Assembly (NCBI GenBank): GCA_040387495.1
Contig: JAZKDQ010000018.1
Location: 62,001 to 89,897, forward strand
Direction: 5' to 3'
Source: Pseudomonadota bacterium
GTDB taxonomy: Bacteria > Pseudomonadota > Alphaproteobacteria > Paracaedibacterales > CAIOTO01
Length of the DNA stretch: 27,897 bases
The position numbers and the translations under genes were made by a program. Numbering within the stretch: the stretch's first letter is position 1; each line of letters begins with the position of its first letter. The notes below the pieces were generated by a model that ran no database searches, was not told the DNA's origin, and saw nothing but the letters and a program-made list of their open reading frames with translations. Of this stretch, positions 9,273 to 22,610 are shown in pieces.

Positions 9273-9302
9273 TTGTTATTTACAACAAAGGAAAGATAAA
9301 AA

Positions 9303-10142
9303 ATGAAAAAATTTTTAAACACAATGTTGGCAACTGCTGCTGTAGTAGCTGCATCAACAACTGCATACGCTGCTACTGGTAAAGTTGCGCAAGGTTTTTA
9401 CCTTGGTGCAAGCGCTGGTGCTGCGAATACAAACGTGAAGTATAATACAGTCTCTGCTGGACCATTTATTCCTGATAGTTTGATTGGAACCACAACTTCA
9501 ACTGCATACCAAAAGGTAACTAATTCAAATGCTGGTAAAATGGCTGGTATATTTGGTCTTTTGGCGGGTTATAACTTTCAATCCGGTTCTTTAGTATTCG
9601 GTGGTGAAATTTATGGTGGCTTTGATTCAACAAAGGTAACAGTTTCTGATGATACAGGGTCAGGCGCTAATCTTACACAATGGAGCACAACTGTTAAGCG
9701 CACAAACTTTATGGGTTTTGCGCCGCGCCTTGGTTTCATGGTTGCACCAAATACATTAATGTACGCACGTTTAGGTGCTGAATTTGGTAAATGGAAAGCA
9801 AGTATTAATCCTAATGCTGCTGGCATGGCGTCACAACTTGCTGCTTATAATGCTGCTGGTGTTGCTGGTCAAGTACTTATTACTCCTGCTGCTCTTGCAA
9901 AATCTCAACAAGTTACAAGTGGATCAAAGGGCGGTATGAGTTTTGCACCTGGTTTGGGTATGGAAGTATATATGGGTAAAGCATTTTTGCGCGCGCAATA
10001 TAGCTACTTATTTGGTCCAACAATTAAGCTTACACAAGATATTACTGGTGTTTCACCTTTGGTGGCAAATGGTACAACAACTACTCATACATTTAAAACA
10101 TCACAACACAAAGTTGAATTGGCTGTTGGTTACAAGTTCTAA
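9303..10142 (+). CDS. Outer-membrane beta-barrel protein, paralog 2
   Basis: Signal peptide; shares GAANTNVKY, GGE.YGGFDS.KVT, VKRTNF.G.APRLGF and YSY.FGP.I..TQDI.G with paralog 1; ends VGYKF. Confidence 0.9.
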   Translation: MKKFLNTMLATAAVVAASTTAYAATGKVAQGFYLGASAGAANTNVKYNTVSAGPFIPDSLIGTTTSTAYQKVTNSNAGKMAGIFGLLAGYNFQSGSLVFGGEIYGGFDSTKVTVSDDTGSGANLTQWSTTVKRTNFMGFAPRLGFMVAPNTLMYARLGAEFGKWKASINPNAAGMASQLAAYNAAGVAGQVLITPAALAKSQQVTSGSKGGMSFAPGLGMEVYMGKAFLRAQYSYLFGPTIKLTQDITGVSPLVANGTTTTHTFKTSQHKVELAVGYKF

Positions 10143-10164
10143 GCTTGTAGTTAATAATCAGATT

Positions 10165-10193
10165 AAAAAGCCGGCCTTTGTGCCGGTTTTTTT
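10165..10193 (+). terminator. Rho-independent terminator of the OMP pair
   Basis: AAAAAGCCGGC-CTTTGT-GCCGGTTTTTTT. Confidence 0.85.
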
Positions 10194-10221
10194 GTGTTTG
10201 TGGTGTGGTTTATGCTGACTA

Positions 10222-10368
10222 AGATTGCCGCGTCGCTCATGCTTCTCGCAATGACGAATCAGGATTTTTGTCATCACGAGGAGGCGAAGCCGACGTGGTG
10301 ATCTTTGTATTAGCAGCGAGATTGCCGCGCATCACTCGCAATGACAAAGAAAAGTGCTCGTGATGACG
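10222..10368. repeat. Cluster of GTCAT-tagged palindromic repeat units: R 10222-10256, L 10269-10304, R 10319-10346, partial 10356-10368
   Basis: AGATTGCCGCG...CTCGCAATGAC and TGTCATCACGAGGAG...GACGTGGTGATCT; same family as the copies at 11257, 12119-12756, 17208, 20919 and 21384. Confidence 0.9.
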
Positions 10369-10392
10369 GCCGGATGGTAGGACCCATAATGA

Positions 10393-11223
10393 TTACTGGT
10401 AAACTAACCCAAACATGCTAAACAGTGCATGCGCTTTAAAATATTTTCCACATGACTGGGTATCCTTAGGATCCCACCTCACCAATGTATATAATGCAAA
10501 TACTGCATACAGAAATGCTGACATGCTGGCCCCGCCTTTGCATAAACACAAAAACATGAATCCTAATCCATAGCAAACACCAACCATTAATTTAGGATGC
10601 TGCTTAAACCTGATCGCGCTTGATTTGATGCCGATTTGTTCATCATCCGTAATGTCTTGAAAGGCATAAATTGTATCATAGGCGATTGTCCAACAAACTC
10701 CGCATGCATATAGGTACCAGACTCCTGCGGTGGGTGCTCCGCTTAGGCAGGCATACCCTACTAGTACACCTGTGTTAAAGGCTAGGCCTAATACGATTTG
10801 AGGGTAATAGGTAATGCGTTTCATAAATGGGTATATAAATAAAAGGACGGCTCCGCATGCTGCATAAAGTCTGGCAATAGGTGGAATCATTAAAAAAACA
10901 ACAAGTGATAATGCTGCAAGGATGCTCGCGCATATTATGGCTTGTTTAAGACTTAAGGTTCCAGCAGCAAGGGGGCGTGTTTTTGTACGCTCTACTTGGC
11001 GATCAAAATCTCTGTCAGCCATGTCGTTAATGATGCAACCAAAGCCACTCAATAGAAATGCTCCGACACTCAATAGACATCCGCACGCTAGGCAGGACGA
11101 AAATGATGCTCCTGCAGTATGATAGCTATGCGCTATTCCCCAAAGGCATGGCCATGCAAGAAGAATGCGGCCAATTGGTTTGTCAAATCGGATGAGTGTA
11201 AGGTATAGTTGGAGATTATGCAT
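10393..11223 (-). CDS. ubiA: 4-hydroxybenzoate polyprenyltransferase
   Basis: RFDKPIG..LL.WPC, NDMADRDFDRQVERTKTRPL, YPFMKRITYYPQ, YDTIYAFQDITDD..IGIKSSA. Confidence 0.96.
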   Translation of the reverse strand: MHNLQLYLTLIRFDKPIGRILLAWPCLWGIAHSYHTAGASFSSCLACGCLLSVGAFLLSGFGCIINDMADRDFDRQVERTKTRPLAAGTLSLKQAIICASILAALSLVVFLMIPPIARLYAACGAVLLFIYPFMKRITYYPQIVLGLAFNTGVLVGYACLSGAPTAGVWYLYACGVCWTIAYDTIYAFQDITDDEQIGIKSSAIRFKQHPKLMVGVCYGLGFMFLCLCKGGASMSAFLYAVFALYTLVRWDPKDTQSCGKYFKAHALFSMFGLVYQ

Positions 11224-11256
11224 GATTGATTCTTTCTGCTGATTTAATAAAAATTA

Positions 11257-11341
11257 CCGTCATCACGAGGAGTCAAAGACGACGTGGTGATCCAGACTGT
11301 TTCTAGATTGCCGCGTCTGCTGCGCAGTCTCGCAATGACGG
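11257..11341. repeat. GTCAT-tagged palindromic repeat doublet (L 11257-11295, R 11303-11341)
   Basis: CCGTCATCACGAGGAGTCAAAGACGACGTGGTGATCCAG, 7-bp spacer, CTAGATTGCCGCGTCTGCTGCGCAGTCTCGCAATGACGG. Confidence 0.9.
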
Positions 11342-11407
11342 GAGGAGTGCGTAATAGCTATTAAGTTGCAATAGAATTTATAAATACTATTATTAGGGAT
11401 TTCTAAC

Positions 11408-12112
11408 ATGACACGACTTTACCTTGATTTCACACCCTCTGACAAGGTGATCGTTTTGCCGGCAGAAGAATCACATTATTTAACACGGGTGCTTCGTTTA
11501 AAAGTAGGCGACATTGTACATGTGTATAATGAACGGGTAGGGGAATGGGAGGTCGTTCTTTCTGAAGTTACAAAGTCATCGTGTGTGCTTGCGCTACAGC
11601 AACAGCTTAGAAAGGCTATTGTTGAGCCAATCACGCGACTTGTGTATGCGCCACTAAAGCATGATGCCATGGCTTTCTTGCTTGAAAAGGCGACTGAACT
11701 TGGCGTGACGCATTTACAGCCTATGGTGACTGATTTCGCTCAAAAGTATGCGGTGCATGCCGATAAAATTGAACGGCAGTTGAAACAAGCATCGCAGCAA
11801 TGTGAGCGGTTATTTGTGCCGGTTTTGTTGCCACCTAAGGCATTTGATATGGTCATTCGTGAATGTGGAGATGGTGCATATATTGCGTTGGAGAGAGCTG
11901 ATGCGTCTAGCCTTGCACATGTGTTAGCTATGAAGGATGTATCTGAACCATGTACATTTATTGTTGGGCCTGAGGGCGGGTTTTCAAGTCGAGAAGTCGA
12001 ATTGATAAAATCGATACCGGGGATTCAAGTAGTATCATTGGGAAGGACTGTTTTGCGCGCAGAGACTGCAGCGATTGTTGGGATGGGTGCTATTTCAATG
12101 TGGCGTGGGTGA
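11408..12112 (+). CDS. rsmE: 16S rRNA m3U1498 methyltransferase
   Basis: HYLTRVLRL, EKATELGV, ASQQCER, IVGPEGGFS, SLGRTVLRAETA. Confidence 0.96.
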   Translation: MTRLYLDFTPSDKVIVLPAEESHYLTRVLRLKVGDIVHVYNERVGEWEVVLSEVTKSSCVLALQQQLRKAIVEPITRLVYAPLKHDAMAFLLEKATELGVTHLQPMVTDFAQKYAVHADKIERQLKQASQQCERLFVPVLLPPKAFDMVIRECGDGAYIALERADASSLAHVLAMKDVSEPCTFIVGPEGGFSSREVELIKSIPGIQVVSLGRTVLRAETAAIVGMGAISMWRG

Positions 12113-12118
12113 TGTTTA

Positions 12119-12756
12119 CCGTCATTGTGGTTTGTCGCGGCGAAACCTTAGCGAAGATTAAGTCTTTGAAAGGGCGTGATAATATTGCTGTCTAGTACAA
12201 TAGATCGCCACGTCGTAAACTCCTCGAGATGACAAAAAAAACTTGATTCGTCATTGCGAGCCCTGAAAGGGCGCGGCAATCTTACTCTATTGATTTATGA
12301 TCTCAAATAAATCATCCCAATTAGGATTCATGGATTCAATTAGCTTAATTTTATTCAATCGTGAGCCAGCTTTTACTTGTTTTTCTCTTTTTACAGCATC
12401 TTCAATTGAATCGTGAAATTCACAATAGACTAATTTATTGCAATGGTATTTTGAAGAAAAACCTGACAAAGCCGTTTTATGTTGAGATATGCGTGCGATA
12501 AGATTTGTTGTAATACCTGTATATAGCACACCATCTTTTTTATTCGTAATGATGTATACTGCAGGTTTTTTCATAATAGATGAGGTGTTGTAGATTTAGA
12601 TTGCCACGCCCTCGTTGAGGGCTCGCAATGACGAACTAGAACTTTCCTGCCATCACGAGGAGTTTTTGCGACGTGGTAACTAGGCTAGATATATTGTCAC
12701 GTATCATAGATGCTTCAGTCTTCGCCGAAGTTTTGACTTGATGTAGCTCAATGACA
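12119..12756. mobile_element. Putative mobile or selfish cassette: GIY-YIG gene inside a mirror-symmetric array of six palindromic repeat units
   Basis: Units L* 12119-12187, R 12201-12234, L 12247-12282, then the gene, then R 12598-12635, L 12648-12683, R* 12691-12756; the innermost pair shares 18 identical bp (TTCGTCATTGCGAGCCCT) in inverted orientation. Confidence 0.6.
12287..12574 (-). CDS. Stand-alone GIY-YIG endonuclease (YhbQ/COG2827-like)
   Basis: VYI..N...LYTG.T.NL..R..QH, LVY.E, A..REKQ.K...R..K..LIE..NP.W.DL; the Tyr, Arg, His and Glu catalytic positions are present. Confidence 0.93.
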   Translation of the reverse strand: MKKPAVYIITNKKDGVLYTGITTNLIARISQHKTALSGFSSKYHCNKLVYCEFHDSIEDAVKREKQVKAGSRLNKIKLIESMNPNWDDLFEIINQ

Positions 12757-12778
12757 ACGTGATAAACTACTTAAAATA

Positions 12779-13069
12779 CTACCCAGCAACAACTTGGCGT
12801 GCTGTAATTATTTTCTTTAAACTTTTCAATTCAGAATTTAAACCGACATTTGATGAACGTAATAAAAATGCATCAAGACCACCATGAAATTCAACCGTTT
12901 TAAGGCCGCGTGTTGTCATACGCATACGAACAGAGCGCCCAAGTGATTCACTCATCAAGGAAACCTGTTGCAGGTTTGGCTGATAACGGCGTTTTGTTTT
13001 ATTGTTAGCGTGACTGACGTGGTTGCCTGAAAGGCCTTTTTTGCCAGTAATTGGGCAGAGACGAGACAT
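12779..13069 (-). CDS. rpmB: 50S ribosomal protein L28
   Basis: MSRLCPITGK...GNHVSHANNKTKRR..PNLQ, long alphaproteobacterial form with GGLDAFL. Confidence 0.97.
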   Translation of the reverse strand: MSRLCPITGKKGLSGNHVSHANNKTKRRYQPNLQQVSLMSESLGRSVRMRMTTRGLKTVEFHGGLDAFLLRSSNVGLNSELKSLKKIITARQVVAG

Positions 13070-13101
13070 AAATAAGATTCCCTTATGATTTACTTGAATG
13101 C

Positions 13102-13130
13102 ATTATGGCAGATATTAAAGGTAGGGTCAA
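13102..13130 (-). promoter_or_regulatory. Sigma70 promoter of rpmB
   Basis: Minus strand TTGACC-N17-CATAAT. Confidence 0.65.
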
Positions 13131-13131
13131 T

Positions 13132-13156
13132 AAAAAAGCCCCCGTGAGGGAGCTTT
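13132..13156 (-). terminator. Rho-independent terminator of the 13184-14227 gene
   Basis: AAAAAAGCCCCCGTGAGGGAGCTTT hairpin, T-tract on the minus strand. Confidence 0.7.
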
Positions 13157-13183
13157 AATCATTGTAATGCAATTAAAAGTTAC

Positions 13184-14227
13184 TTAAGCGGTTAAGGTTG
13201 TGATTTCTAATTGTGTAAACTCTGAAGCTAAATCTTGGGGGGATTTTTTATCAATTGCGGTGTGCAATGCAGCAGAGCCACGACCGAACCCTGCTATTCT
13301 CTTTTGCTCTGTTTTAAGAGCAGCGATTTGATCTTCCGTTAAAGTCACATTTGCTCCATCGCTTGTTGTGCATGCGTTAGTCGTAGGTGGTGGTGGTGGT
13401 GTGTCTATGCTTGCTATTTCTGCAGCTGCCTGAGTTACCGCATCAGCAACCGTTGCCTGAATTAAAGTTGTTACTGGCGTATATTTAAGATCTGTGCCAG
13501 CGTGTAAAAGCAATGCTTCGAGAGCGGCAAAAGGTCGGGCAGCGAGTGCAGCATTAAGAGCAGCCGTATGAGCAGTTTTAAGCATATAGTCATTCGCTAA
13601 AGTAGTTGCGTCTGTGTAACCGACTGTTGCATTTAGAACTTCAGCATCACGAGTAGTTTTAAGTACGAAGTCGTTCGCTAAAGTAGTTGCGTCTGTGTAA
13701 CCGACTGTTGCATTTAGAACTTCAGCATCACGAGTAGTTTTAAGTACGAAGTCGTTCGCTAAGTCAGTTGGGCTTACATAGCCTGCAAAGTCAGATTTAG
13801 CTACAAAATTTACTGCTGCATAATCTGTCATGTCTGTTATTGTCTTTGCTAATTGTAATATTATAGTCTTGTAAACATCGTCTACTTCTACTGTCTTAGG
13901 ATCTAATCCTGAGAAGTCTAGAGTTAGTTTCTGGTTATTGTGTAAGTAATCGATTGCCTTATTTACACTTTCTTCGCTTTTATTTTGCGCCGATAAAAAA
14001 CTATTAGCCGCGCCAAGTACACTTGCGTTGTTTACATTTTTTTTAGCAGGATGAGTGGCGTCTGTAAATGCTGGTTGGACAGTTGGAGTTACTTGGAAAA
14101 TAGCTGTAGCTGTGGAAGCCGTTCCGCTTAGGAGAGGGATTGAGCTGGTTAATAGATCTGCTGGATTCATTGCAGATGCTATTGATGTTGTTAGCATTAA
14201 CGCTATTAAAAATTTATTTTTTGTCAT
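13184..14227 (-). CDS. Secreted or surface hypothetical protein with 27-aa tandem repeat and shared C-terminal domain
   Basis: Signal peptide MTKNKFLIALMLTTSIASA, AGGA SD, own terminator, poly-Pro linker before the C-terminal domain. Confidence 0.85.
   Translation of the reverse strand: MTKNKFLIALMLTTSIASAMNPADLLTSSIPLLSGTASTATAIFQVTPTVQPAFTDATHPAKKNVNNASVLGAANSFLSAQNKSEESVNKAIDYLHNNQKLTLDFSGLDPKTVEVDDVYKTIILQLAKTITDMTDYAAVNFVAKSDFAGYVSPTDLANDFVLKTTRDAEVLNATVGYTDATTLANDFVLKTTRDAEVLNATVGYTDATTLANDYMLKTAHTAALNAALAARPFAALEALLLHAGTDLKYTPVTTLIQATVADAVTQAAAEIASIDTPPPPPTTNACTTSDGANVTLTEDQIAALKTEQKRIAGFGRGSAALHTAIDKKSPQDLASEFTQLEITTLTA
13593..13762. repeat. Perfect 81-bp tandem repeat (2 copies + 8 bp), in frame
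   Basis: TTCGCTAA recurs at 13593, 13674 and 13755; encodes LANDFVLKTTRDAEVLNATVGYTDATT twice. Confidence 0.95.
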
Positions 14228-14386
14228 ATTGATTTTTCCTTTTTAATTTTAATAAATATTATCTTTTAACTTATGCGTATCCACTAAGTTTAGCTATATA
14301 GTTAAACTTGCTTGATAGATACCACAAGATAAAACAGTATGCAAGAAATAAATTTTTATATAAAAAAATTAAAGAAGGAAGTTGAA

Positions 14387-14419
14387 TTTAAAAAAGCTCC
14401 TATAAGGAGCTTTTTTAAA
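14387..14419. terminator. Bidirectional rho-independent terminator after the 14446-15855 gene
   Basis: Perfect TTTAAAAAAGCTCCT-ATA-AGGAGCTTTTTTAAA. Confidence 0.9.
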
Positions 14420-14445
14420 GTTTAAGTATTATTTCAGGGATATTT

Positions 14446-15855
14446 TTATTTAGTTAATTTTTTGATCTCATCATCCTTAAAAGTTAAAACAGTATCTTTA
14501 GGGCTTGTAGCATCAATTTCGGTATGCTTTATAGCAGAACCACGGCCGAACCCTACTAGTCTCTTTTGCTCTGTTTTAAGGGTAGTGATTTGCTCATTCG
14601 TAAGTGTTACATTTTTTCCATCTAATGTTCTATAAATTCCACTGCTAGAGCTGCTAGCACCGCTACCACTTGTTATTGGCGTAGTCAGATCATCAAACGC
14701 ATAATCTGAACCATCACTTCTCTTTTTTAGTATTTTTTTCCCGGTTGTTGTGTCTCGGTCATAAACCTCACCTGCCGCATCGGTAATGATTGCATTTCCA
14801 CTGGAATCATATGTTTTCTTTGCTCCATTGCGAAGTGCACTTCCATAAAGTGTACTTCTATCCTTTGCATTGAATACTTTTTCTTCCCCAGACTTTGAAT
14901 TGTACTTAATATCGCCTGCAACACGATCATAATCTAACAGATCAAGGTTGCTACCACTTGCTTTTTTAAACTTACTGTTCTCAAAATCTATGGTTTCTCC
15001 AGTTGGTAAAACCTTTAATTTTTTAACAAAAGTTCCTGTATTGAGATCAAGCGTGTTTCCAGTTTTTTTGAATGTGATGGTTTTTGCACTTGAGTCATAA
15101 TCGAGATCATTTGGACCTGCGCCTATTTTATGTTTTTTGCCATTTGCGCCATTAATAATTTCATTCGCGCTCACGTCTAGAATCCAGCCGCTTTTATAGA
15201 TTTTGATTACTAGATCTCCTGTGCTCGAACGTTGCTCCCAACCACCAGAGCCATCACTTGTGAGTGTTCTAAGCATGTATGCTTTAGATGGATCTGCATC
15301 ATTTACTAAGTCACTAGGGTCAGTGTGCCAACCAGTTGGCCACGTATTAAAAGTGGCCATTTGAGAAGTTGAAGCTTTTAATCCTGCTGCTGGCCAACCG
15401 GCGGCATTAGTTGAATATAATGGTGGTGGTGGTGAAGACACAGTTCCTGGTCCGTGTGATAGGAGTGGCACTCCAAATGTTGCTGCAGATGAAGATCCTG
15501 TTGCAGGTGCAGGTGCCGCTGCTACATGTCCTGTTGCTGCAGATGAAGATGAAGATGAAGATGAAGATGAAGATGAAGGCCCTGTAGCTGGTGTTGTGAA
15601 CCCTGATGGATTTAGTGCTGCTGCTTTTAGAGCTCTTATTTCCCTTTCTAGTGTCTGTAATCTATGTTCAATACGGTCATTAATTGCTTCATCAATGCCT
15701 TCATTTACTTCCTTAGCTGTAGTAAAACCACTGCTTGTTGATGATTTTACATACTGTGTAGGAGTACTACTTGTAGCAGCACTTACTTCTCCAATAAAAT
15801 TTCCACTGCTAATCGCAGTTGCGCACAATAATGACATTAATAATTTGTTTCTCAT
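14446..15855 (-). CDS. Secreted or surface hypothetical protein (coiled coil, poly-Ser linker, beta-rich region, shared C-terminal domain)
   Basis: Signal peptide MRNKLLMSLLCATAISSG, AGGGG SD, heptad stretch IEHRLQTLEREIRALK; last 61 aa homologous to those of 13184-14227. Confidence 0.85.
   Translation of the reverse strand: MRNKLLMSLLCATAISSGNFIGEVSAATSSTPTQYVKSSTSSGFTTAKEVNEGIDEAINDRIEHRLQTLEREIRALKAAALNPSGFTTPATGPSSSSSSSSSSSSAATGHVAAAPAPATGSSSAATFGVPLLSHGPGTVSSPPPPLYSTNAAGWPAAGLKASTSQMATFNTWPTGWHTDPSDLVNDADPSKAYMLRTLTSDGSGGWEQRSSTGDLVIKIYKSGWILDVSANEIINGANGKKHKIGAGPNDLDYDSSAKTITFKKTGNTLDLNTGTFVKKLKVLPTGETIDFENSKFKKASGSNLDLLDYDRVAGDIKYNSKSGEEKVFNAKDRSTLYGSALRNGAKKTYDSSGNAIITDAAGEVYDRDTTTGKKILKKRSDGSDYAFDDLTTPITSGSGASSSSSGIYRTLDGKNVTLTNEQITTLKTEQKRLVGFGRGSAIKHTEIDATSPKDTVLTFKDDEIKKLTK
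15541..15578. repeat. Hexanucleotide SSR (AGATGA)6 encoding poly-Ser
   Basis: Direct reading; in-frame unit of 2 codons. Confidence 0.9.
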
Positions 15856-16075
15856 AAAACTAACCCCTGATAAAAAATGTTTTTTCTATTACAGTTATTA
15901 ATGTAGGGGAAACAGATTAATAATTTATTAAATCGCGAGATTTTTTTGTGGATTTTGTAGGAGGAGATCTTCGTATCGGGCGTGAGGAAAACTAAAAAGG
16001 GGAAGTTCTTTTGTGACATCACATCATAGCGCTTTTCGCGGCGGCTCACACCGTAGTTTCACAAACTAAGATGTA

Positions 16076-16149
16076 TGGAGGCCGGTACCGGAATCGAACC
16101 GATATAGAAGGATTTGCAATCCTTTGCATAACCATTCTGCCAACCGGCC
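16076..16149 (-). tRNA. tRNA-Cys (GCA)
   Basis: Minus strand GGCCGGTTGGCAGAATGGTTATGCAAAGGATTGCAAATCCTTCTATATCGGTTCGATTCCGGTACCGGCCTCCA; U73 discriminator and CCA. Confidence 0.97.
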
Positions 16150-16153
16150 TCAT

Positions 16154-16395
16154 TGTCCGTTGTGTTTTGCACCCTTGCTGCGTTGATCAGCGCACTCTGC
16201 AGTACTCATGTACAAAGTGTACATTTCATGCTTCGATACTTGATCGCCTAGCAATGATCCCAAACCACTTAGGACAGCTCGTTGTGTTTTGCACCCTTGC
16301 TGCGTTGATCAGCGTGTTCTGCATACTCATGTACAAAGTGTACATTCATGCTTCGACACTTGATCGCCTAGCATTGATCCCAAACCACTTTGAGC
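16154..16395. repeat. Two abutting ~120-bp RPE-like palindromic elements (16154-16276, 16277-16395)
   Basis: Near-identical direct repeats with a central TGTACA-AAG-TGTACA palindrome and self-complementary ends. Confidence 0.85.
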
Positions 16396-16433
16396 ATATT
16401 CGATAAATCGCTAGAATTTATCGTACTTTTTCA

Positions 16434-16463
16434 TTTATAGTCGTTCTAAGGGCTTTTGGTCAA
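16434..16463 (-). promoter_or_regulatory. Candidate promoter for tRNA-Cys
   Basis: Minus strand TTGACC-N18-TATAAA, upstream of the tandem repeats. Confidence 0.45.
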
Positions 16464-16486
16464 GCGATTTTACAGAAAGTTGTTTT

Positions 16487-17155
16487 ATGAATGTGTTTAC
16501 AGCCGAGCATGATATTGAATCGATTCTGTTTCAGCAAGTACGACCACACGGTGTTTTGTCTACACAGGTTGAAGCTGCGCTTCGATCTGTAAATCGTATT
16601 CCATTTTTGCCTCCAGCCTTTGCGGACGTAGCATATGGTGATGCCCCAATTCAACTGAAACGTCGGTGCGAGCTCCCTTTTTTTGTGCTCGCACGGTTGT
16701 TGCAGGTGCTTGCCATTAAGAAAGTTGATAGTGTATGTGTGGTCAGTGCGGGCGCCGGATATAGTGCGACGATTTTATCGCAGCTGTGTAGTGCTGTCGA
16801 AGCCTTCGAAAGCGATAGTATTTTGTTTGCCCGCTTAATTGACGCCACACGTGGAAATACGATTGTGACGCCAGTGCCAACCCTTAGCGCACGACTTGTT
16901 GATGTGATTTTTATGGATGGCGGTGCGTTAGATGCGATACCACAAGCCGTATTGGATAAACTTTTGCCGGGGGGACGGATTGCTTTTGTGCGCGTCATGC
17001 CGGGCGGATCACCATCACTTGAGGCACCTTTATGCGAGGGCGTGCTAATTAAGAAGGACGCAGAGGGTGTGTTTTTACCGCCGCATATTGTGTGTCAAGT
17101 GCATTTACCAAGATTAAACGTATGTATACGTCAAAATGAAGCATTCCATTTTTGA
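16487..17155 (+). CDS. pcm: Protein-L-isoaspartate O-methyltransferase family protein (divergent)
   Basis: QQVRP, V.R..FLP....VAYGD, LARLLQ.L, AGAGY...ILSQL, DVIF.DG, L.PGGR; position upstream of tolC-popZ. Confidence 0.8.
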   Translation: MNVFTAEHDIESILFQQVRPHGVLSTQVEAALRSVNRIPFLPPAFADVAYGDAPIQLKRRCELPFFVLARLLQVLAIKKVDSVCVVSAGAGYSATILSQLCSAVEAFESDSILFARLIDATRGNTIVTPVPTLSARLVDVIFMDGGALDAIPQAVLDKLLPGGRIAFVRVMPGGSPSLEAPLCEGVLIKKDAEGVFLPPHIVCQVHLPRLNVCIRQNEAFHF

Positions 17156-17207
17156 TGAAACTGGTTAGAATGGTGAGTAAGGTTTGTGATTATGGTTTTC
17201 ATGACTT

Positions 17208-17295
17208 CGTCATGGCAAGCCTGTAAGGCGTGGCCATCCAGGGTTGTTTCAAAGTAGATGGATTACCGCGTCGTCTTTGACTACTCGCAATGACG
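17208..17295. repeat. GTCAT-tagged palindromic repeat doublet (L 17208-17240, R 17259-17295)
   Basis: CGTCATGGCAAGCCTGTAAGGCGTGGCCATCCA ... TGGATTACCGCGTCGTCTTTGACTACTCGCAATGACG. Confidence 0.88.
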
Positions 17296-17347
17296 GTGGA
17301 TTTTTGGAGCATTACACAAAATTTTTAACAGTAAAATAAATGGATAC

Positions 17348-18922
17348 ATGATGAAAAATTTAAGTCTTTTTCTTTGTTTAGGGTGCGCCCTAGCTGCGCC
17401 TGTATTAGCAGAAAAAAGCGTGACTCCCACAGTGACAACTGTAGGTACTGCAAGTCAAAACGCAAAAGATGCAAAAATATTAGCAGAGGTTTCTAAAAAA
17501 CCATCTAACGTTGTCTTAAATGCACCTGCAGTCGTATCGACAGATGTTGCTGTTATTGAAATGAAAGAGTCATTGGCTGCGCCTAGTGGCCCCGTTTCAA
17601 CATTGGCTGATGCGCTTGCTGCGGCGTATGTAAATAACCATGGTCTTTTGCAAAAGCGTCAAGAATTAATGTCTGGACATGAAAAAATTGCTCAAACAAA
17701 GGCCGATTTTTTACCGTCAGTAACATCTGAAATTGGTTTAAGGGGTAATAAGTCACTTGCCTCTGGTTCTCTTAAAGATAGAAATCCAGCTGGCACTCCG
17801 AATTCCACAAGAAATAGCAGCCGCACAGGAAATATAACTATCCAACAAAATTTGTTTGCGGGTGGTTCTACCATGGCAGCGGTTTTATCGGCGGATCAAA
17901 CGATTCGCGGTTCGTGGGCGAAATTATTGTTAGAAGAACAGAAAACTTTTTTTGATGTGATAAAAGCCTATCTTGATTTAATTAGTAAAGTTTCAAAGGT
18001 TGATGTGCGTATGGCAAACCATGCTGCTTTGAAAAAAAGTTATGAAACAGCGTTTGAAAAACATAGTATTGGTGAAGAACCTTTGACGCAAGTTGCCATT
18101 GCAGAGTCAAAATTTGCTGAAGCAGAGGCAGAATTGCGTACAGCGGAAGCTGATGTCGTGGGTGCCAGGGCAATTCTAACTGCATTAATTGGGACAGATG
18201 TCATTAAGGTTGCTAAGCCAGATGCACCAACAAACTTGCCGCAAACATTAGAAGCATCTATTTCAATGGCAACTGATAATCATCCTGCTATTATGCAAGC
18301 TCAATTTGATCATAAGGCCGCAGAAGCTAATATTGATGAAGTCGAAGGAAAATATTATTTGCCAAGGGTAGACTTGCAAGCAAAATCATCACGTGAGGAA
18401 TCAAGTGCGCGAAATCTTTACGCTGGCGGCGCGGGGGATGTACGATATTCAAACAATGTAACCGATCATTCAATTGGCATTACCATGTCTTATAATCTAT
18501 ATTCAGGCGGACGGTATTCATCAAAGAAACGTGAATTGCATGATGTGGCTGTTACAAAACGAATCTCAATAGAGGGTGCAAAGACAGAAATTGTCGGCTC
18601 TGTGAAATCAACGTTTGAATCCTATCATGCAGCAAAGACAAACATTGAAAATTATAAAAAACAAGTGAAGGCCGCTGAAGTTGCTCTTGAAGCGACGCGT
18701 CAAGAAATGGAAGTTGGAACAAAGGTTTTGTTAGATGTGTTGAATGCGCAAGCCGAGCTTGTAAAGGCGCAGCTAGGGTTTATTGATGCTGAAAAGAATT
18801 TCTTCCAATTTGCATATCAAATGGTGAGCTTGCTTGGCGGGCTGCATGCAAAGGCGATGAAGCTGACTGTTAATTATTTTGACCCTGTGGCGCATTATGA
18901 TAACATTAGCGTTGGGTTTTAA
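17348..18922 (+). CDS. tolC: TolC family outer membrane efflux/T1SS channel
   Basis: Signal peptide, TLADALAAAY.NN, two OEP repeats (QNLFAGG; YNLYSGG), E.EVGTK.LLDVLNAQ.EL, YFDP..HYD. Confidence 0.95.
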   Translation: MMKNLSLFLCLGCALAAPVLAEKSVTPTVTTVGTASQNAKDAKILAEVSKKPSNVVLNAPAVVSTDVAVIEMKESLAAPSGPVSTLADALAAAYVNNHGLLQKRQELMSGHEKIAQTKADFLPSVTSEIGLRGNKSLASGSLKDRNPAGTPNSTRNSSRTGNITIQQNLFAGGSTMAAVLSADQTIRGSWAKLLLEEQKTFFDVIKAYLDLISKVSKVDVRMANHAALKKSYETAFEKHSIGEEPLTQVAIAESKFAEAEAELRTAEADVVGARAILTALIGTDVIKVAKPDAPTNLPQTLEASISMATDNHPAIMQAQFDHKAAEANIDEVEGKYYLPRVDLQAKSSREESSARNLYAGGAGDVRYSNNVTDHSIGITMSYNLYSGGRYSSKKRELHDVAVTKRISIEGAKTEIVGSVKSTFESYHAAKTNIENYKKQVKAAEVALEATRQEMEVGTKVLLDVLNAQAELVKAQLGFIDAEKNFFQFAYQMVSLLGGLHAKAMKLTVNYFDPVAHYDNISVGF

Positions 18923-18950
18923 TAATAATGATAAATAAAGGTACGAGCGT

Positions 18951-19580
18951 ATGACCACATCAAATCACAGCGATGATGATCAAGAAATGTCAATGGACGA
19001 AATTTTAGCGTCTATTCGTCGCTATGTGTCGTCGGATGAACCTGCTCAAAAGGCTGAGCCAAAAGCGGCAGAGCCTTTGTTTGCTAGGCCTCAACTAGAT
19101 ATGGGCGAAGAGCCACATACACAACGTATTACACCGCATTTAGATATGTCACGCCAAGAAGATGTGGTGCGGTTAAACGATGGCGAGAGTACGCGTGAAG
19201 AGTCCCAGCATCCTTCTGCTTGGGCGGAAGAACCCTTTAAGCCTGCTTTTGATATGAACAGAAATGAACCACGTATTGCTCGTCCATTATCAACGCCGCC
19301 AAGGCAATCGAATGCTGCTCCTAAATTAAACGCAGATGGTTTGGTTTCAGATAAAACACTTGCGACAACGATGGAATCATTTGCGCGATTGCGTGATGCA
19401 TCTGCGCCAAAGACGACTGCGAAACACGATTCTGCCGCATCATCAGGTTTGAATCAAACATTGGATCAGTTGTTTGAAAGTCTTGCAAGGCCAATGATTC
19501 GCGAGTGGCTTGATCGAAATTTGCCACCGATGGTCGAACGTATGGTTGCACGAGAGATTGAACGTATTACAAAGTCATGA
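18951..19580 (+). CDS. popZ: Polar organising protein PopZ (DUF2497)
   Basis: N-terminal SMDEILASIRR, disordered Pro/Glu-rich middle, C-terminal RPMIREWLDRNLPPMVERMVAREIERI. Confidence 0.93.
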   Translation: MTTSNHSDDDQEMSMDEILASIRRYVSSDEPAQKAEPKAAEPLFARPQLDMGEEPHTQRITPHLDMSRQEDVVRLNDGESTREESQHPSAWAEEPFKPAFDMNRNEPRIARPLSTPPRQSNAAPKLNADGLVSDKTLATTMESFARLRDASAPKTTAKHDSAASSGLNQTLDQLFESLARPMIREWLDRNLPPMVERMVAREIERITKS

Positions 19581-19725
19581 TGCCAAATACAGTAATTCAC
19601 AATTGCGGCAACGATCTTCTGGCTATGTAAACAGCGGATTTGGCCTTGTGGTGCTTCTTTACAGATGTAACCTCCGCACCTCAAACCATTGCTTGTTTAG
19701 TCTCGAACATTTCTGAATTTGGCAT
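19580..19725. repeat. 146-bp RPE/MITE-like palindromic element
   Basis: Terminal inverted repeat ATGCCAAATACAG / CTGAATTTGGCAT (12 of 13 match); central TTAC-AGAT-GTAA core followed by CCTCCGC. Confidence 0.6.
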
Positions 19726-19750
19726 GGCCATTGTCATTCTCAATTTATCG

Positions 19751-19853
19751 TTGTTATTCCCGCGTAGACGGGAATCTAGAAAATATATAGATCAAGCTCT
19801 TAGTTTAGTGTAATTTGAATTATTCTGGATCCCCGTCTGCACGGGGATGACAA
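19751..19853. repeat. dRS3-like ATTCCC-N8-GGGAAT palindromic doublet
   Basis: TTGTTATTCCCGCGTAGACGGGAATCTAG ... CTGGATCCCCGTCTGCACGGGGATGACAA. Confidence 0.88.
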
Positions 19854-19921
19854 GGTTAATAATATTTTTTTTCCGGGTTGATGTCGTTTCATCGCGCACA
19901 ATCACGAGGAGTATCCTGTTT

Positions 19922-20890
19922 ATGTATAAATCTTTTATTGTTGAAAACTGCCCAACCACACGGGTGGATCGCTGGTTAAGGCGTGAATTTCCAACTGCGA
20001 CACAAGGACAAGTTGAAAAATGGCTGAGGTCAAAAGATATTCTTGTGAATGATAAAAAAGTCGAATCATCGTTTCGTGTGAATGAATTTGATACGATTCA
20101 GGTTAAAATTGTCATTGCTGAAATTTTGTCAAGGCAGGATAAATCACCACTGAATCTTCAGGTGCAGTTGCCGACACGCGCTGAGGCTGACTTATTGGCA
20201 TCATTTATTATTTGGGAAGATGATGAGCTGTTGATTTTAAATAAGCCGTCTGGTTTGGCCACGCAAGGGGGGACAGATACGCATCAGCATATTGATCGAT
20301 TGCTGAAAGCATATCAACAATTTTATTGCCCAAAAGTGCAGCCGCGTCTTGTGCATCGCCTTGATCGTGATACAAGTGGGGTACTGGTAGTTGCTAAGAC
20401 GTTAAAGGCTGCTAATAATTTGGCGGATCAATTTAAAGAAAATGTAATGGACAAAGTCTATTGGGCAGTATGTCATGGGCGTGCATCGCCATTACATGGT
20501 TTGATTGATGCACCCATTGCAAAAATTGAACGTCCTGGGCGCGGCGGCGAAACAATGGCCGTTGATACAAAACTTGGGAAAAGAGCACAAACGAATTATC
20601 GAGTTGTGAAATCATTCTCAGATTTTAGTTGGATGGAACTTAAGCCGCTCACCGGGCGCACCCATCAGTTACGTGTACATATGGCGTGGTTTGGTAACCC
20701 AATTCGAGGTGACGGCAAGTATGGGTTGCGCATCGACGGTAAGCACGATAATGAAACGCTGCATTTGCATGCTCGGTCGATAAAACTTAAAAGCATAGAT
20801 GGTGAGACGTTGACGTTTACTGCGCCGCCTCCAGTACATATGGTTGAAACGCTTGCGCGCAATAGTATTAGCTGGGAACACTTTGCTTAA
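19922..20890 (+). CDS. rluC: RluA-family 23S rRNA pseudouridine synthase (RluC-like)
   Basis: S4 domain (RVDRWLRR), NKPSGLATQGG, HRLDRDTSG with catalytic Asp, TGRTHQLRVH, LHLHA. Start moved to ATG 19922 (GAGGAG at 19906-19911) because ATG 19847 lies inside the repeat. Confidence 0.9.
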   Translation: MYKSFIVENCPTTRVDRWLRREFPTATQGQVEKWLRSKDILVNDKKVESSFRVNEFDTIQVKIVIAEILSRQDKSPLNLQVQLPTRAEADLLASFIIWEDDELLILNKPSGLATQGGTDTHQHIDRLLKAYQQFYCPKVQPRLVHRLDRDTSGVLVVAKTLKAANNLADQFKENVMDKVYWAVCHGRASPLHGLIDAPIAKIERPGRGGETMAVDTKLGKRAQTNYRVVKSFSDFSWMELKPLTGRTHQLRVHMAWFGNPIRGDGKYGLRIDGKHDNETLHLHARSIKLKSIDGETLTFTAPPPVHMVETLARNSISWEHFA

Positions 20891-20918
20891 ATTCCAGTTT
20901 TAATATGCTTCATATCGC

Positions 20919-20999
20919 CGTCATCGCGAGGAGTTTACGACGTGGCGATCTTGTGCTCATGCAGCCAGATTGTCACGCATCAAAGATGCTCGCAATGAC
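20919..20999. repeat. GTCAT-tagged palindromic repeat doublet (L 20919-20951, R 20967-20999)
   Basis: CGTCATCGCGAGGAGTTTACGACGTGGCGATCT ... AGATTGTCACGCATCAAAGATGCTCGCAATGAC. Confidence 0.9.
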
Positions 21000-21043
21000 T
21001 ATGGATTAGACAAATAAATTAGACCAAAGCGAGGTAAAATAAA

Positions 21044-21355
21044 GTGAAGCCAGCCCCAATTTTGTTTGTCGTGTTGCTGCGGTATCTTGTGCCCTTGGAT
21101 ATGATTTTAGCGCTTCGTCCAGCGCATGTGGATTATCTGAAACAGTGTTATGACAATGGAACATTTCTAGTGTCAGGGCCGCAAGTGCCCAGGGCAGGCG
21201 GTCTTATTCTTGCACGTGCAGCAAGTCGTGCAGCGTTGATTGAGACTTTAGAACGGGATCCTTTTTATGTGCACAAAGCAATTGAATATCACGTGTATGG
21301 ATTCGAGGTGAATATGTGCGCGCCAGAATTAGAAAATATTTTAAAGCCAATATAA
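21044..21355 (+). CDS. YciI family protein
   Basis: RPAHVDYL, FLVSGPQVPRAGGLIL, DPFY; GAGGT SD before the GTG start. Confidence 0.88.
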   Translation: MKPAPILFVVLLRYLVPLDMILALRPAHVDYLKQCYDNGTFLVSGPQVPRAGGLILARAASRAALIETLERDPFYVHKAIEYHVYGFEVNMCAPELENILKPI

Positions 21356-21383
21356 CTGTTCATCCATAAAAGGATCATGAATT

Positions 21384-21497
21384 CGTTATCGCAGCCTATC
21401 TCGACAAAGCTTTAGCGAAGACGGAAGGTGTTAACGACGCGGCGATCTTTGTACGAACAGCCTAGATTGCCACGCTTCTTTGAAGCTCGCAGTGACG
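21384..21497. repeat. GTCAT-tagged doublet with long-variant left arm (L* 21384-21448, R 21464-21497)
   Basis: CGTTATCGCAG[..CAAAGCTTTAGCGAAGACGG]..CGACGCGGCGATCT ... AGATTGCCACGCTTCTTTGAAGCTCGCAGTGACG. Confidence 0.85.
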
Positions 21498-21515
21498 GCA
21501 GCCATCATAAATAAC

Positions 21516-21547
21516 AAAAAAACCCGAGGATTAACCCCGGGCTTTTT
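21516..21547. terminator. Rho-independent terminator, probably bidirectional
   Basis: AAAAAAACCCGAGG-ATTAA-CCCCGGGCTTTTT. Confidence 0.8.
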
Positions 21548-21573
21548 CTGTAGATTCTTAGAAGTCTTGCGAA

Positions 21574-22290
21574 CTAGAACTTGTACGCAGCACCGATTGC
21601 AAAACGGTGATCTTTGTAAGATACTCTTCCATTTGCAAGTACAGCTTCATCGTTGTCATTTACAGTAACTTTTTTGCCTAAATTATATGTATATTCAGCA
21701 CGTAAAAGAACTTTGCCCATTGCGCGTTCATAACCAAATGCCGGTGCGAACACAGTGCTTGTTTTATTTGAAGAAAAAGTAAAACTTCTGTTGGTGTTAG
21801 TGTTATCTAGTTCATTGCCTGAAGCTGATACTTTGTCTTTGCTAATTTCAATGCCTGGCTTTACATAAACCAAGTTCTCACCAAACACATAACCGAAACG
21901 TGGTGCGAAACCAAAAGCAATGCCTCTTTTGTATTCTGTTTTTGCGCCAAAGCTATCGCCTTGTGGATCAGTACGGTTATAAATATTTATTTTACGTTTT
22001 GCTGTGTCTGACAGAATTGACATTTCGCCGCCAACATAAAAACCATTTAAATTTTTGCCATAACCAGCATACAAACCATAAAGAAGGCCGTTTGAATTTT
22101 TACCTGAGTTAATTGTTACATTTTTCGATGCAGCTGCAGTTGCCTGAGCTTCTGTTAGTTGAACTTTTGATTTGCTCTTCACAAACCCAGCTTGTGCACC
22201 AAGGTAAGCACCATTAAATGATTTTGATGCTGCGTTTGCTGCAAATGCAGTTGCAGCCATAAGTGTAGTTGCGAGTAGTATTCTTTTCAT
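21574..22290 (-). CDS. Outer-membrane beta-barrel protein, paralog 3
   Basis: Signal peptide, FNGAYLGAQ, GLYAGYG, YVGGE, APRFGY, ends IGAAYKF. Confidence 0.9.
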   Translation of the reverse strand: MKRILLATTLMAATAFAANAASKSFNGAYLGAQAGFVKSKSKVQLTEAQATAAASKNVTINSGKNSNGLLYGLYAGYGKNLNGFYVGGEMSILSDTAKRKINIYNRTDPQGDSFGAKTEYKRGIAFGFAPRFGYVFGENLVYVKPGIEISKDKVSASGNELDNTNTNRSFTFSSNKTSTVFAPAFGYERAMGKVLLRAEYTYNLGKKVTVNDNDEAVLANGRVSYKDHRFAIGAAYKF

Positions 22291-22610
22291 AAAATAAAAT
22301 CCTTTAAATAATATAGTTACGTTTATAATTCACTATGATTCTTTTTTGTTGTCAACACAACGAATGTTGCATTCATAGCGGCGTTACTTTTTTTGGTTGT
22401 GACAATATAGTCGCATATCACGTTTGTTTTTTTTTGAGAAAGAAATTTTTTGTTTTTACATTTTTTGTAAATAGTATAATATTTTTTTCCTTAATTATAT
22501 ATTAATTTTAATTTATTTTTTTATAAATTAGATTTTTTTTTGCTTTTAGTCTAAGTTGAAAAGCCTGTAGTAGAAGTGGAATATACATATGTGACTTTGT
22601 TTAAACACAT

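Follow-up and report, generated by a model that had tools for sequence, protein, structure and literature searches.

A probable Ssn-family GIY-YIG nuclease gene between inverted GTCAT-headed hairpins in an uncultured alphaproteobacterium

Ssn nucleases have been described together with the NTS/SRM repeats with which they are paired (Chenal et al. 2025, Nat Commun 16:2388; PMC11893778). In that paper the NTS of Neisseria is given as CGTCATTCCCGCGMAVGCGGGAATCYRG, and SRM hairpins flank the genes of 94-residue single-domain GIY-YIG proteins that the Conserved Domain Database (CDD) classifies as cd10448, GIY-YIG_unchar_3; an SRM is present in 71% of the homologue regions, and 42% contain one on each side. 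SsnA requires the hairpin to be single-stranded DNA for binding and cuts a few nucleotides (nt) upstream of it. Cleavage is lost in the Y6A, Y17A and E64A variants of Neisseria meningitidis SsnA, binding depends most on the C directly after the palindrome, and an ssnA knockout of N. meningitidis shows 5-fold higher transformation by NTS-bearing DNA. The Discussion of the paper likens the 'NTS-ssnA-NTS' arrangement to an insertion sequence, to IS200/IS605 and to REP-associated Y1 transposases, and cites the RAYT papers. Here we describe a gene of this kind and its repeats in a 27.9-kb stretch of DNA, called the window throughout, from the genome of an uncultured alphaproteobacterium recovered from a watershed metagenome (assembly GCA_040387495.1, our G000; the window is G000:C18:62001-89897). 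The pairing of nuclease and hairpin is not new, since it was published in 2025 as Ssn with NTS/SRM (PMC11893778), and the find itself is an ordinary one: a further Ssn nuclease with its hairpins.

Our results make it very likely that the window gene (ssn) is a member of the Ssn family, that the units of the form GTCATYRCGAG...CGYGGYRAT-C around it are its cognate hairpins, and that the whole module is a horizontally moving, replaceable cassette. The gene and its immediate surroundings, in window coordinates, are as follows.

11408..12112, plus strand: rsmE, the left flanking housekeeping gene (PF04452, E 1.1e-34; also PF20260)
12119..12187, plus strand: long variant of the unit, left outer layer, with an internal insert containing TTAGCGAAGA; fold z -0.2
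12204..12233, minus strand: GAGGAG-subtype unit, left middle layer, degenerate; fold z +1.4, no better than shuffles
12250..12280, plus strand: hairpin unit GTCATTGCGAGCCCTGAAAGGGCGCGGCAAT, a few nt past the ssn stop codon, head facing outward; -8.9 kcal/mol, z -2.2
12287..12574, minus strand: ssn, a single-domain GIY-YIG open reading frame of 95 residues (PF01541, E 1.8e-14)
12600..12632, minus strand: hairpin unit GTCATTGCGAGCCCTCAACGAGGGCGTGGCAAT, 26 nt upstream of the ssn start codon, head facing outward; -8.9 kcal/mol, z -2.9
12649..12680, plus strand: GAGGAG-subtype unit, right middle layer, degenerate, with a GCCAT head and a GGTAAC tail; fold z +0.1
12691..12756, minus strand: long variant, right outer layer, the mirror of 12119-12187; fold z -0.4
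12779..13069, minus strand: rpmB (ribosomal protein L28), the right flanking housekeeping gene (PF00830, E 1.2e-23)

The PF01541 match spans residues 4-75 of the window protein, and a second domain is absent according to Pfam and NCBIfam; in NCBIfam no model reaches its cut-off (TIGR01453 scores 18.7 bits against the 56 needed). The protein is encoded once in G000, a genome of 1.66 Mb, 39% G+C and 20 contigs that is 99.9% complete: tblastn returned the gene itself (E 4e-62) and a runner-up at E 4.6. A protein search of a plasmid collection that includes N. gonorrhoeae chromosomes yielded a 94-residue gonococcal open reading frame with 45% identity and 71% positives over 93 residues (E 3e-30). 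This frame sits among 16 matches to the NTS pattern (at most 2 mismatches) within 3.3 kb, and in the pairwise alignment Y7, Y18 and E64 of the window protein, invariant in a family alignment of 30 members, fall opposite its Y6, Y17 and E64, the positions that were mutated in N. meningitidis SsnA. From its length, residue numbering and NTS surroundings we infer that the gonococcal frame is the SsnA orthologue. A further route leads through Marinospirillum insulare DSM 21763, whose single match to the window protein is 57% identical and which Supplementary Data 4 of PMC11893778 scores for both an ssnA homologue and a cd10448 protein; by way of this species the window protein would be placed in cd10448. 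The same file scores Inquilinus limosus, Bradyrhizobium hipponense, Lacinutrix venerupis and Bizionia argentinensis for both traits, these five species being the ones found among six locus species names that were checked in it, and it scores Ca. Paracaedibacter acanthamoebae as cd10448-positive. The family profile found one solved structure, that of the UPF0213 protein BH0048 (PDB 1zg2; E 9e-7), which is likewise a small stand-alone GIY-YIG protein, but a distant one from another GIY-YIG subfamily without a known link to repeats. Among 50,697 phage records the window protein had no match.

The window system and Ssn/NTS share a single-domain GIY-YIG protein of about 94 residues with the same catalytic Tyr, Tyr and Glu, a gene placed between inverted, oriented hairpins, a head that reads C-GTCAT, and a palindrome immediately followed by C. 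Both also have tens to hundreds of intergenic copies that cluster by membrane-protein genes, and a patchy spread across phyla. They differ in the palindrome, which is ATTGCGAG...CGYGGCAAT with a variable inner stem in the window and ATTCCCGCG...CGCGGGAAT in the NTS, in the low copy number of the window units (48), and in that many of these stand in tail-to-tail doublets; the main text of PMC11893778 does not contain the words 'doublet' or 'REPIN'. Because they share the NTS anatomy (C-GTCAT head, palindrome and C-Y-A tail) on a different and longer stem, we call the GTCATTGCGAG units a dialect.

The preliminary description of this locus, made from the letters of the window, had reported a gene for a GIY-YIG nuclease in the gap between the convergent genes rsmE and rpmB, at the centre of three mirrored layers of palindromic repeats. 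The convergent arrangement is borne out by Pfam matches to both neighbours, and the inner layer is as described, with TTCGTCATTGCGAGCCCT-GAA-AGGGCGCGGCAATCT at 12247-12282 and its inverse at 12598-12635. The two 18-nt heads are identical, the loops are different and the tails differ by one mismatch; the units of this pair, of 31-33 nt each, read GTCATTGCGAG-CCCT-loop-AGGG-CGYGGCAAT. The unit at 12250-12280 lies 10 nt from the end of the tblastn match and has an identical copy at G000:C4:30772-30802. The intact hairpin pair is the inner layer only. The GAGGAG mirror pair does exist, but its units are degenerate, one has GCCAT for GTCAT, and their folds are no more stable than those of shuffled sequence; the pair of long variants, 12119-12187 and 12691-12756, is indeed mirrored but has no significant fold. 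These middle and outer layers are decayed units, and the view of the three layers as one designed structure found no support.

A single long terminal inverted repeat made of all three layers was also considered. The arms, 12113-12286 against the reverse complement of 12575-12778, are identical at 128 of 161 aligned positions (80%). Since units of these subtypes are also found elsewhere and the outer layers have decayed, independent accumulation of mirrored layers is equally possible.

The units form a family that extends over the genome. With a pattern that requires the head GTCATYRCGAG and the tail CGYGGYRAT, allows one substitution in each and leaves 3-60 nt between them, we counted 48 units in G000, whereas five shuffles gave 2, 3, 2, 3 and 6; for the exact head there are 25 occurrences, compared with 3 for the reversed control pattern. 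The remaining ~46 units are scattered over the genome, many of them as tail-to-tail doublets, and adjacent units are oriented tail-to-tail in 10 cases and head-to-head in 3. The window holds 14 of the 48, every one intergenic. In a genome with a C content of 0.19, the base before GTCAT is C in 30 of the 48 units and the base after the palindrome is C in 44, while the unit tail is CCA or CTA in 31. In the outer stem, head and tail carry Watson-Crick complementary versions of the variable dinucleotide in 29 of 50 units, where 8.1 would be expected under independence, and the main variants (head/tail) are TG/CA, GG/CC, CA/TG and CG/CG; this covariation indicates that the hairpin itself is maintained, beyond mere sequence. 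Units of the window away from ssn are listed below.

10224..10367, no strand assigned: three to four clustered units, with an exported-protein gene on one side and ubiA on the other
11259..11339, no strand assigned: empty tail-to-tail doublet between ubiA and rsmE; -18.3 kcal/mol, z -2.4
17209..17294, no strand assigned: empty doublet, intergenic
20920..20999, no strand assigned: empty doublet, intergenic
21466..21496, minus strand: unit whose partner is a degenerate long variant starting near 21384

Empty doublets, in which a short spacer takes the place that ssn has in the cassette, had been reported at four sites. Those at 11259-11339, 17209-17294 and 20920-20999 stand, their cores being 15, 24 and 19 nt apart; that at 21384 is present as well, but its left unit is long and degenerate. 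The spacers of the G000 doublets are mutually unrelated.

The pairing is general. We gathered 562 relatives of the window protein of similar length (E at most 0.001), whose named sources are few and come from several phyla; apart from its own cluster and one match at 76%, they are at most ~63% identical to it. A scan of one genome per species gave at least 589 stretches that encode a homologue, and the best 80 were kept (loci L001-L080), of which 74 offered the full 300 nt on both sides of the gene. Using a generic detector (GTC, a 5-nt half-stem A-Y-N-N-Y and its exact reverse complement 6-60 nt on), we found a unit within 300 nt of the gene in 72 of the 80 loci, upstream in 66, downstream in 66 and on both sides in 60. 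These near-gene units number 235 (5.0 per kb) against 110 (0.34 per kb) beyond 600 nt, a difference of ~15-fold, and 20 shuffles of the near flanks gave 0-7. The median distance of the nearest unit from the gene is 37 nt upstream and 36 nt downstream. Exactly GTCATTGCGAG starts 170 of the 235, and across many phyla most homologues in this subclade have flanks of the GTCATTGCGAG...GCAAT-C dialect. The comparison of homologue flanks with control sequence is therefore positive, and the GIY-YIG protein and the GTCAT hairpins make up a dedicated pair in which the gene lies between two inverted units, as had been proposed.

The preliminary description had also suggested comparing repeat subtype and copy number with the phylogeny of the nuclease. 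We did so mainly among 41 genomes of the same order, G000 included, 21 of which have a match to the window protein. Among homologues at least 52% identical to it, GTCAxxGCGAG-type units flank the gene in 5 of 7 fetched loci, with identical copies on both sides of ssn in two of them (L082 and L086), while at L087 and L088 the only units are farther away or atypical. At 50% identity or below, homologues mostly have NTS-type or GTCATCMCCGGG-type flanks: the latter type accompanies the ssn of G002, G001 and G014 (45-49%), the former that of G003 and G040 (45-49%), and CGAG-like flanks are found at G004:C48 (50%). In a FastTree phylogeny of 95 proteins, built from few columns and leaving many forks unresolved, 2 changes suffice to account for the three dialects on the 78 labelled rows. 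Proteins with CCGGG flanks group in one clade (97% local support); the NTS and CCGGG labels stand on 3 rows each, and all the CCGGG rows and two of the three NTS rows are kin. Dialect thus tracks nuclease lineage.

Copy number behaves in the same way, following the ssn dialect with an up to 100-fold spread among relatives. G003, whose ssn is NTS-flanked, has 97 NTS heads; G000 has 25 CGAG, 7 NTS and 4 CCGGG heads, G004 has 31 CGAG heads and none of the other two, and G012 has 188 CGAG heads. When the counts of the three heads are summed, the median is 31 for the 21 genomes that match ssn and 1 for the 20 that do not, a tally over related genomes with no statistical test attached. One genus supplies several natural nuclease-hairpin pairs, of the CGAG, NTS and CCGGG types, for studies of specificity.

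The congeners also bear on whether the module is replaceable. Same-genus ssn genes are 45-57% identical to the one in the window, compared with 58-79% for rsmE and 77-92% for rpmB as measured by tblastn. In G001 (L111, on G001:C18) an ssn of the CCGGG clade, 45% identical to ours, stands between rsmE and rpmB in the orientation opposite to that in G000, and in G004 (L110, on G004:C48) an ssn that is 50% identical adjoins rpmB after two extra genes. G005 (L109, on G005:C15) has the gene order of G004 and no ssn match; its gap of 383 nt contains one atypical unit. In this one genus the 3' side of rpmB is therefore occupied by three ssn lineages in both orientations, with CGAG-type units in G000 and G004 and GTCATCMCCGG-type units in G001, which points to repeated insertion or to module replacement. 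An empty rsmE-rpmB site had been sought in relatives. A clean one was not found, since G002-G005 differ in gene order or content (in G002 rsmE and rpmB are on separate contigs), and the comparable case is that of G005 against G004. Insertion boundaries and target duplications could not be defined among the congeners, their sequences being too diverged. The patchy occurrence of the gene, its similarity across phyla and the replacement of lineages argue that the module is selfish and moves horizontally. Recurrent occupation of the site next to rpmB and doublets that some congeners have and others lack offer a natural system for asking whether and how such modules move.

If the enzyme behaves as its four characterised homologues in PMC11893778 do, Ssn would recognise the GTCAT-reading strand of a unit when this is single-stranded and folded, and would nick that strand directly 5' of the (C)GTCAT head. 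The flanking units lie on opposite strands, so a cassette or doublet would present one cuttable site per strand, and with one site per strand a same-strand peel-and-paste mechanism does not fit. Single-stranded-DNA insertion sequences likewise have subterminal hairpins that are recognised in single-stranded DNA and bracket the gene; unlike the window module, with its two units on opposite strands and no known strand transfer, they have both ends on the same strand, where these are cut and rejoined through a covalent tyrosine intermediate. For the role in the host, the candidates that we considered are a selfish element, a limit on the recombination of incoming single-stranded DNA, and the spread of repeats.

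Several observations weigh against assigning the window gene and its repeats to the Ssn system. Unlike that of the assayed Ssn proteins, the activity of the window member is predicted, and its action on this dialect is extrapolated from the published homologues. The placement in cd10448 is indirect, and the gonococcal frame used for comparison is unannotated. The SRM search pattern printed in the Methods of PMC11893778, HGTCWYN(0-2)YYVSBRHN(0-5)WNVSBRGN(0-2)RNCYNB, misses both flanking units and has matches within 300 nt of the gene in 0 of the 80 loci, in an implementation that does match an NTS instance. The nearest unit is oriented with its head outward in only 43 of 66 cases upstream, where it then reads in the direction of the gene, and 47 of 66 downstream, where it reads in the opposite direction. 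Within the order, six genomes in which ssn has a match (G016, G028, G029, G034, G035 and G039) contain just 0-3 heads, two (G013 and G015) have 15-18 heads and no ssn match that we could find, and G001, with 240 contigs and 95% completeness, has 91 CGAG heads and only a CCGGG-type ssn found.

As the SRM pattern fails on the units, their membership in SRM rests on the shared anatomy; the GTCATTGCGAG units are a local dialect of NTS/SRM that this printed pattern misses. The head motif is absent from ten supplementary files of the paper, and a full-text literature search with the 11-nt head and its complement returned unrelated primer matches only. In five gene-carrying genomes that we looked up, the published SRM enrichment is only 0.40- to 2.5-fold; since the dialect escapes the pattern, figures such as these are likely underestimates.

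Beyond membership in the Ssn family, the preliminary description had cast the nuclease as the autonomous partner that spreads or maintains the repeats, in the manner of REP/REPIN repeats and RAYT proteins. The Discussion of PMC11893778 draws the same comparison, so the idea is already in print as a hypothesis, and its appearance there speaks for it; a search judged by titles and the openings of abstracts found no paper on the mobility of Ssn repeats. Put explicitly, Ssn would be a trans-acting enzyme that replicates doublets as non-autonomous elements, with its gene as the autonomous master. This is compatible with the Ssn reading, and we regard it as possible though doubtful. The likeness to REP/REPIN-RAYT lies in the inverted hairpin doublets, in the single-copy enzyme gene within its own repeats, and in a dialect tied to the enzyme lineage. 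The layout resembles that of a RAYT gene between REPs, with the excess of tail-to-tail over head-to-head neighbours (10 against 3), and one doublet, that at 11259-11339, folds as a single long hairpin. Copy numbers that vary up to 100-fold and follow the ssn dialect agree with it, as does the absence of a Y1 transposase as an alternative partner: PF01797 had no match in the 99.9%-complete G000, while control genomes did match.

Doublets also differ among congeners. The spacer between ubiA and rsmE (11224-11407 in the window; L094-L098) measures 184 nt in G000 and 167 nt in G001, in both cases with a doublet, against ~30 nt in G002-G005, and this variable presence favours replication of doublets. 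A further point on the same side comes from G003, where a single element accounts for 7 of the 8 NTS doublets sampled.

Against a replicating role stands first the chemistry: RAYT proteins are HUH tyrosine transposases, whereas GIY-YIG enzymes have a different fold and hydrolyse DNA with no covalent intermediate, and mobilisation by Ssn is putative only. What PMC11893778 reports is cleavage alone, of the GTCAT-reading strand alone, which leaves one cuttable unit per strand where peel-and-paste needs two. With their unrelated spacers, the G000 doublets are not copies of a single element. The contigs of three public runs, one of them probably the source of this DNA, one with fragments of it and one with almost nothing, contained no joint or excision product; none of these contigs joins across the cassette or the doublets, and as contigs break at repeats they are uninformative on excision. 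Repeats moreover persist where no ssn was found, both in G013 and G015 and, according to Supplementary Data 4 of PMC11893778, in several Wolbachia. The autonomous partner of the preliminary description lacks support here and in that paper, the published activity being hydrolytic cleavage of single-stranded DNA and a limit on transformation, not transposition.

Two side observations concern these doublets. In the second unit of the ubiA-rsmE doublet, the outer stems of G000 and G001 differ by compensated changes (ATTGC/GCAAT vs ATGGC/GCCAT) and the inner stem is another one. The NTS doublets of G003 (L118-L125) have a constant start-to-start spacing of 86 nt, and the 7 copies belong to a dispersed element of at least 138 nt that occurs in both orientations; its spacer and outer flanks are conserved and it reaches past the GTCAT heads, like a doublet carrier resembling a miniature inverted-repeat transposable element (MITE).

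A second explanation makes Ssn a domesticated limiter of recombination, which would cut incoming or exposed single-stranded DNA at the repeats and so lower recombination across repeat-bounded genes, the repeats being kept for that purpose. The 5-fold effect on transformation reported in PMC11893778 is the sole in-vivo role shown for any Ssn, and the clustering of 14 of the 48 units near genes for outer-membrane and exported proteins parallels the NTS clusters published there. We nevertheless consider this explanation unlikely: competence in this uncultured lineage would be an assumption, 48 units would affect few genes, and the gene is patchy (21 of 41 genomes) and is replaced by unrelated lineages within the genus, to which a selfish cassette is a better fit.

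That the hairpins are REP-like terminators or mRNA stabilisers among which the gene merely landed, or that the gene is a double-strand homing endonuclease, agrees with the intergenic position of every window unit and with the convergent rsmE-rpmB gap, a setting where hairpins are common, but is highly improbable given GTCAT-headed units beside the gene in 72 of 80 homologue loci from many phyla at 15 times the far-flank density, a dialect that follows the nuclease lineage, no terminator-like site and no T-run in 12050-12850, nothing from Rfam in 10000-13300 except a Leu_leader at chance level (E 0.8; 19.8 bits against a gathering score of 50), and a protein that has no DNA-binding domain beyond its 95-residue GIY-YIG core and does not lie in an intron. 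Homing endonucleases of the I-TevI type have the same catalytic core and are likewise selfish, horizontally moving genes, but they possess a separate DNA-binding domain, cut double-stranded DNA and are found in introns or free-standing in phages; the window protein, by comparison, is the bare core and outside any intron. Promoter-like sites in 12050-12850 number 3 against 2.3 expected and are uninformative on the expression of the gene.

A wider conjecture joins several of these results: Ssn modules could be the GIY-YIG counterpart of REPIN-RAYT, with lineages that spread their own dialect as non-autonomous doublets and whole modules, gene and flanking hairpins together, that swap at preferred sites, while the SRM census would miss the GTCATTGCGAG dialect. 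We think it improbable in this full form, in which every hairpin dialect would owe its spread to its own nuclease lineage.

The cluster of units at 9300-22300, 14 of the 48, lies among genes for outer-membrane and exported proteins, an arrangement that echoes the NTS clusters of PMC11893778. The genes concerned are the following.

9303-10142, 13184-14227 and 14446-15855: signal-peptide-like proteins without a Pfam match
17348-18922: OEP gene, an outer-membrane protein gene in the unit cluster
21574-22290: OMP_b-brl gene, an outer-membrane protein gene in the unit cluster

The same region has a unit of the other dialect, which fits the published SRM pattern.

19825..19852, minus strand: NTS-type unit TGTCATCCCCGTGCAGACGGGGATCCAG

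In G000 as a whole the SRM pattern has 14 matches, against 1-7 in shuffles, of the NTS and NTSvar types and some of them in doublets; the sites include C3:161100/161174, C4:42763/42835 and C14:104652/104743. An ssn of the lineage cognate to these units was not found in G000, and the matches could be remnants left by earlier ssn modules.

The long variants at 12119-12187, 12691-12756 and 21384-21455 resemble ordinary units with an insert of ~30 nt, containing GCGAAGA, directly after the head. Similar inserts are found in G001 (L111, 4926-4988 and 5134-5199), and the insert may be a second small element nested within the hairpin.

Other GIY-YIG matches in G000 are two, according to a Pfam-based search: UvrC and, on another contig, a small frame at G000:C13:86882-87064 (PF01541, E 5e-11) directly 3' of a tRNA-like stretch. 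The latter has an in-frame stop after its first few codons and looks like a pseudogene; as tblastn with the window protein missed it, it belongs to a different GIY-YIG subfamily. Lastly, among the 30 aligned family members, the homologue P0104 from a Patescibacteria metagenome-assembled genome has an N-terminal extension of 34 residues that is absent in the other 29 proteins and is possibly a gene call that starts inside an upstream hairpin unit.

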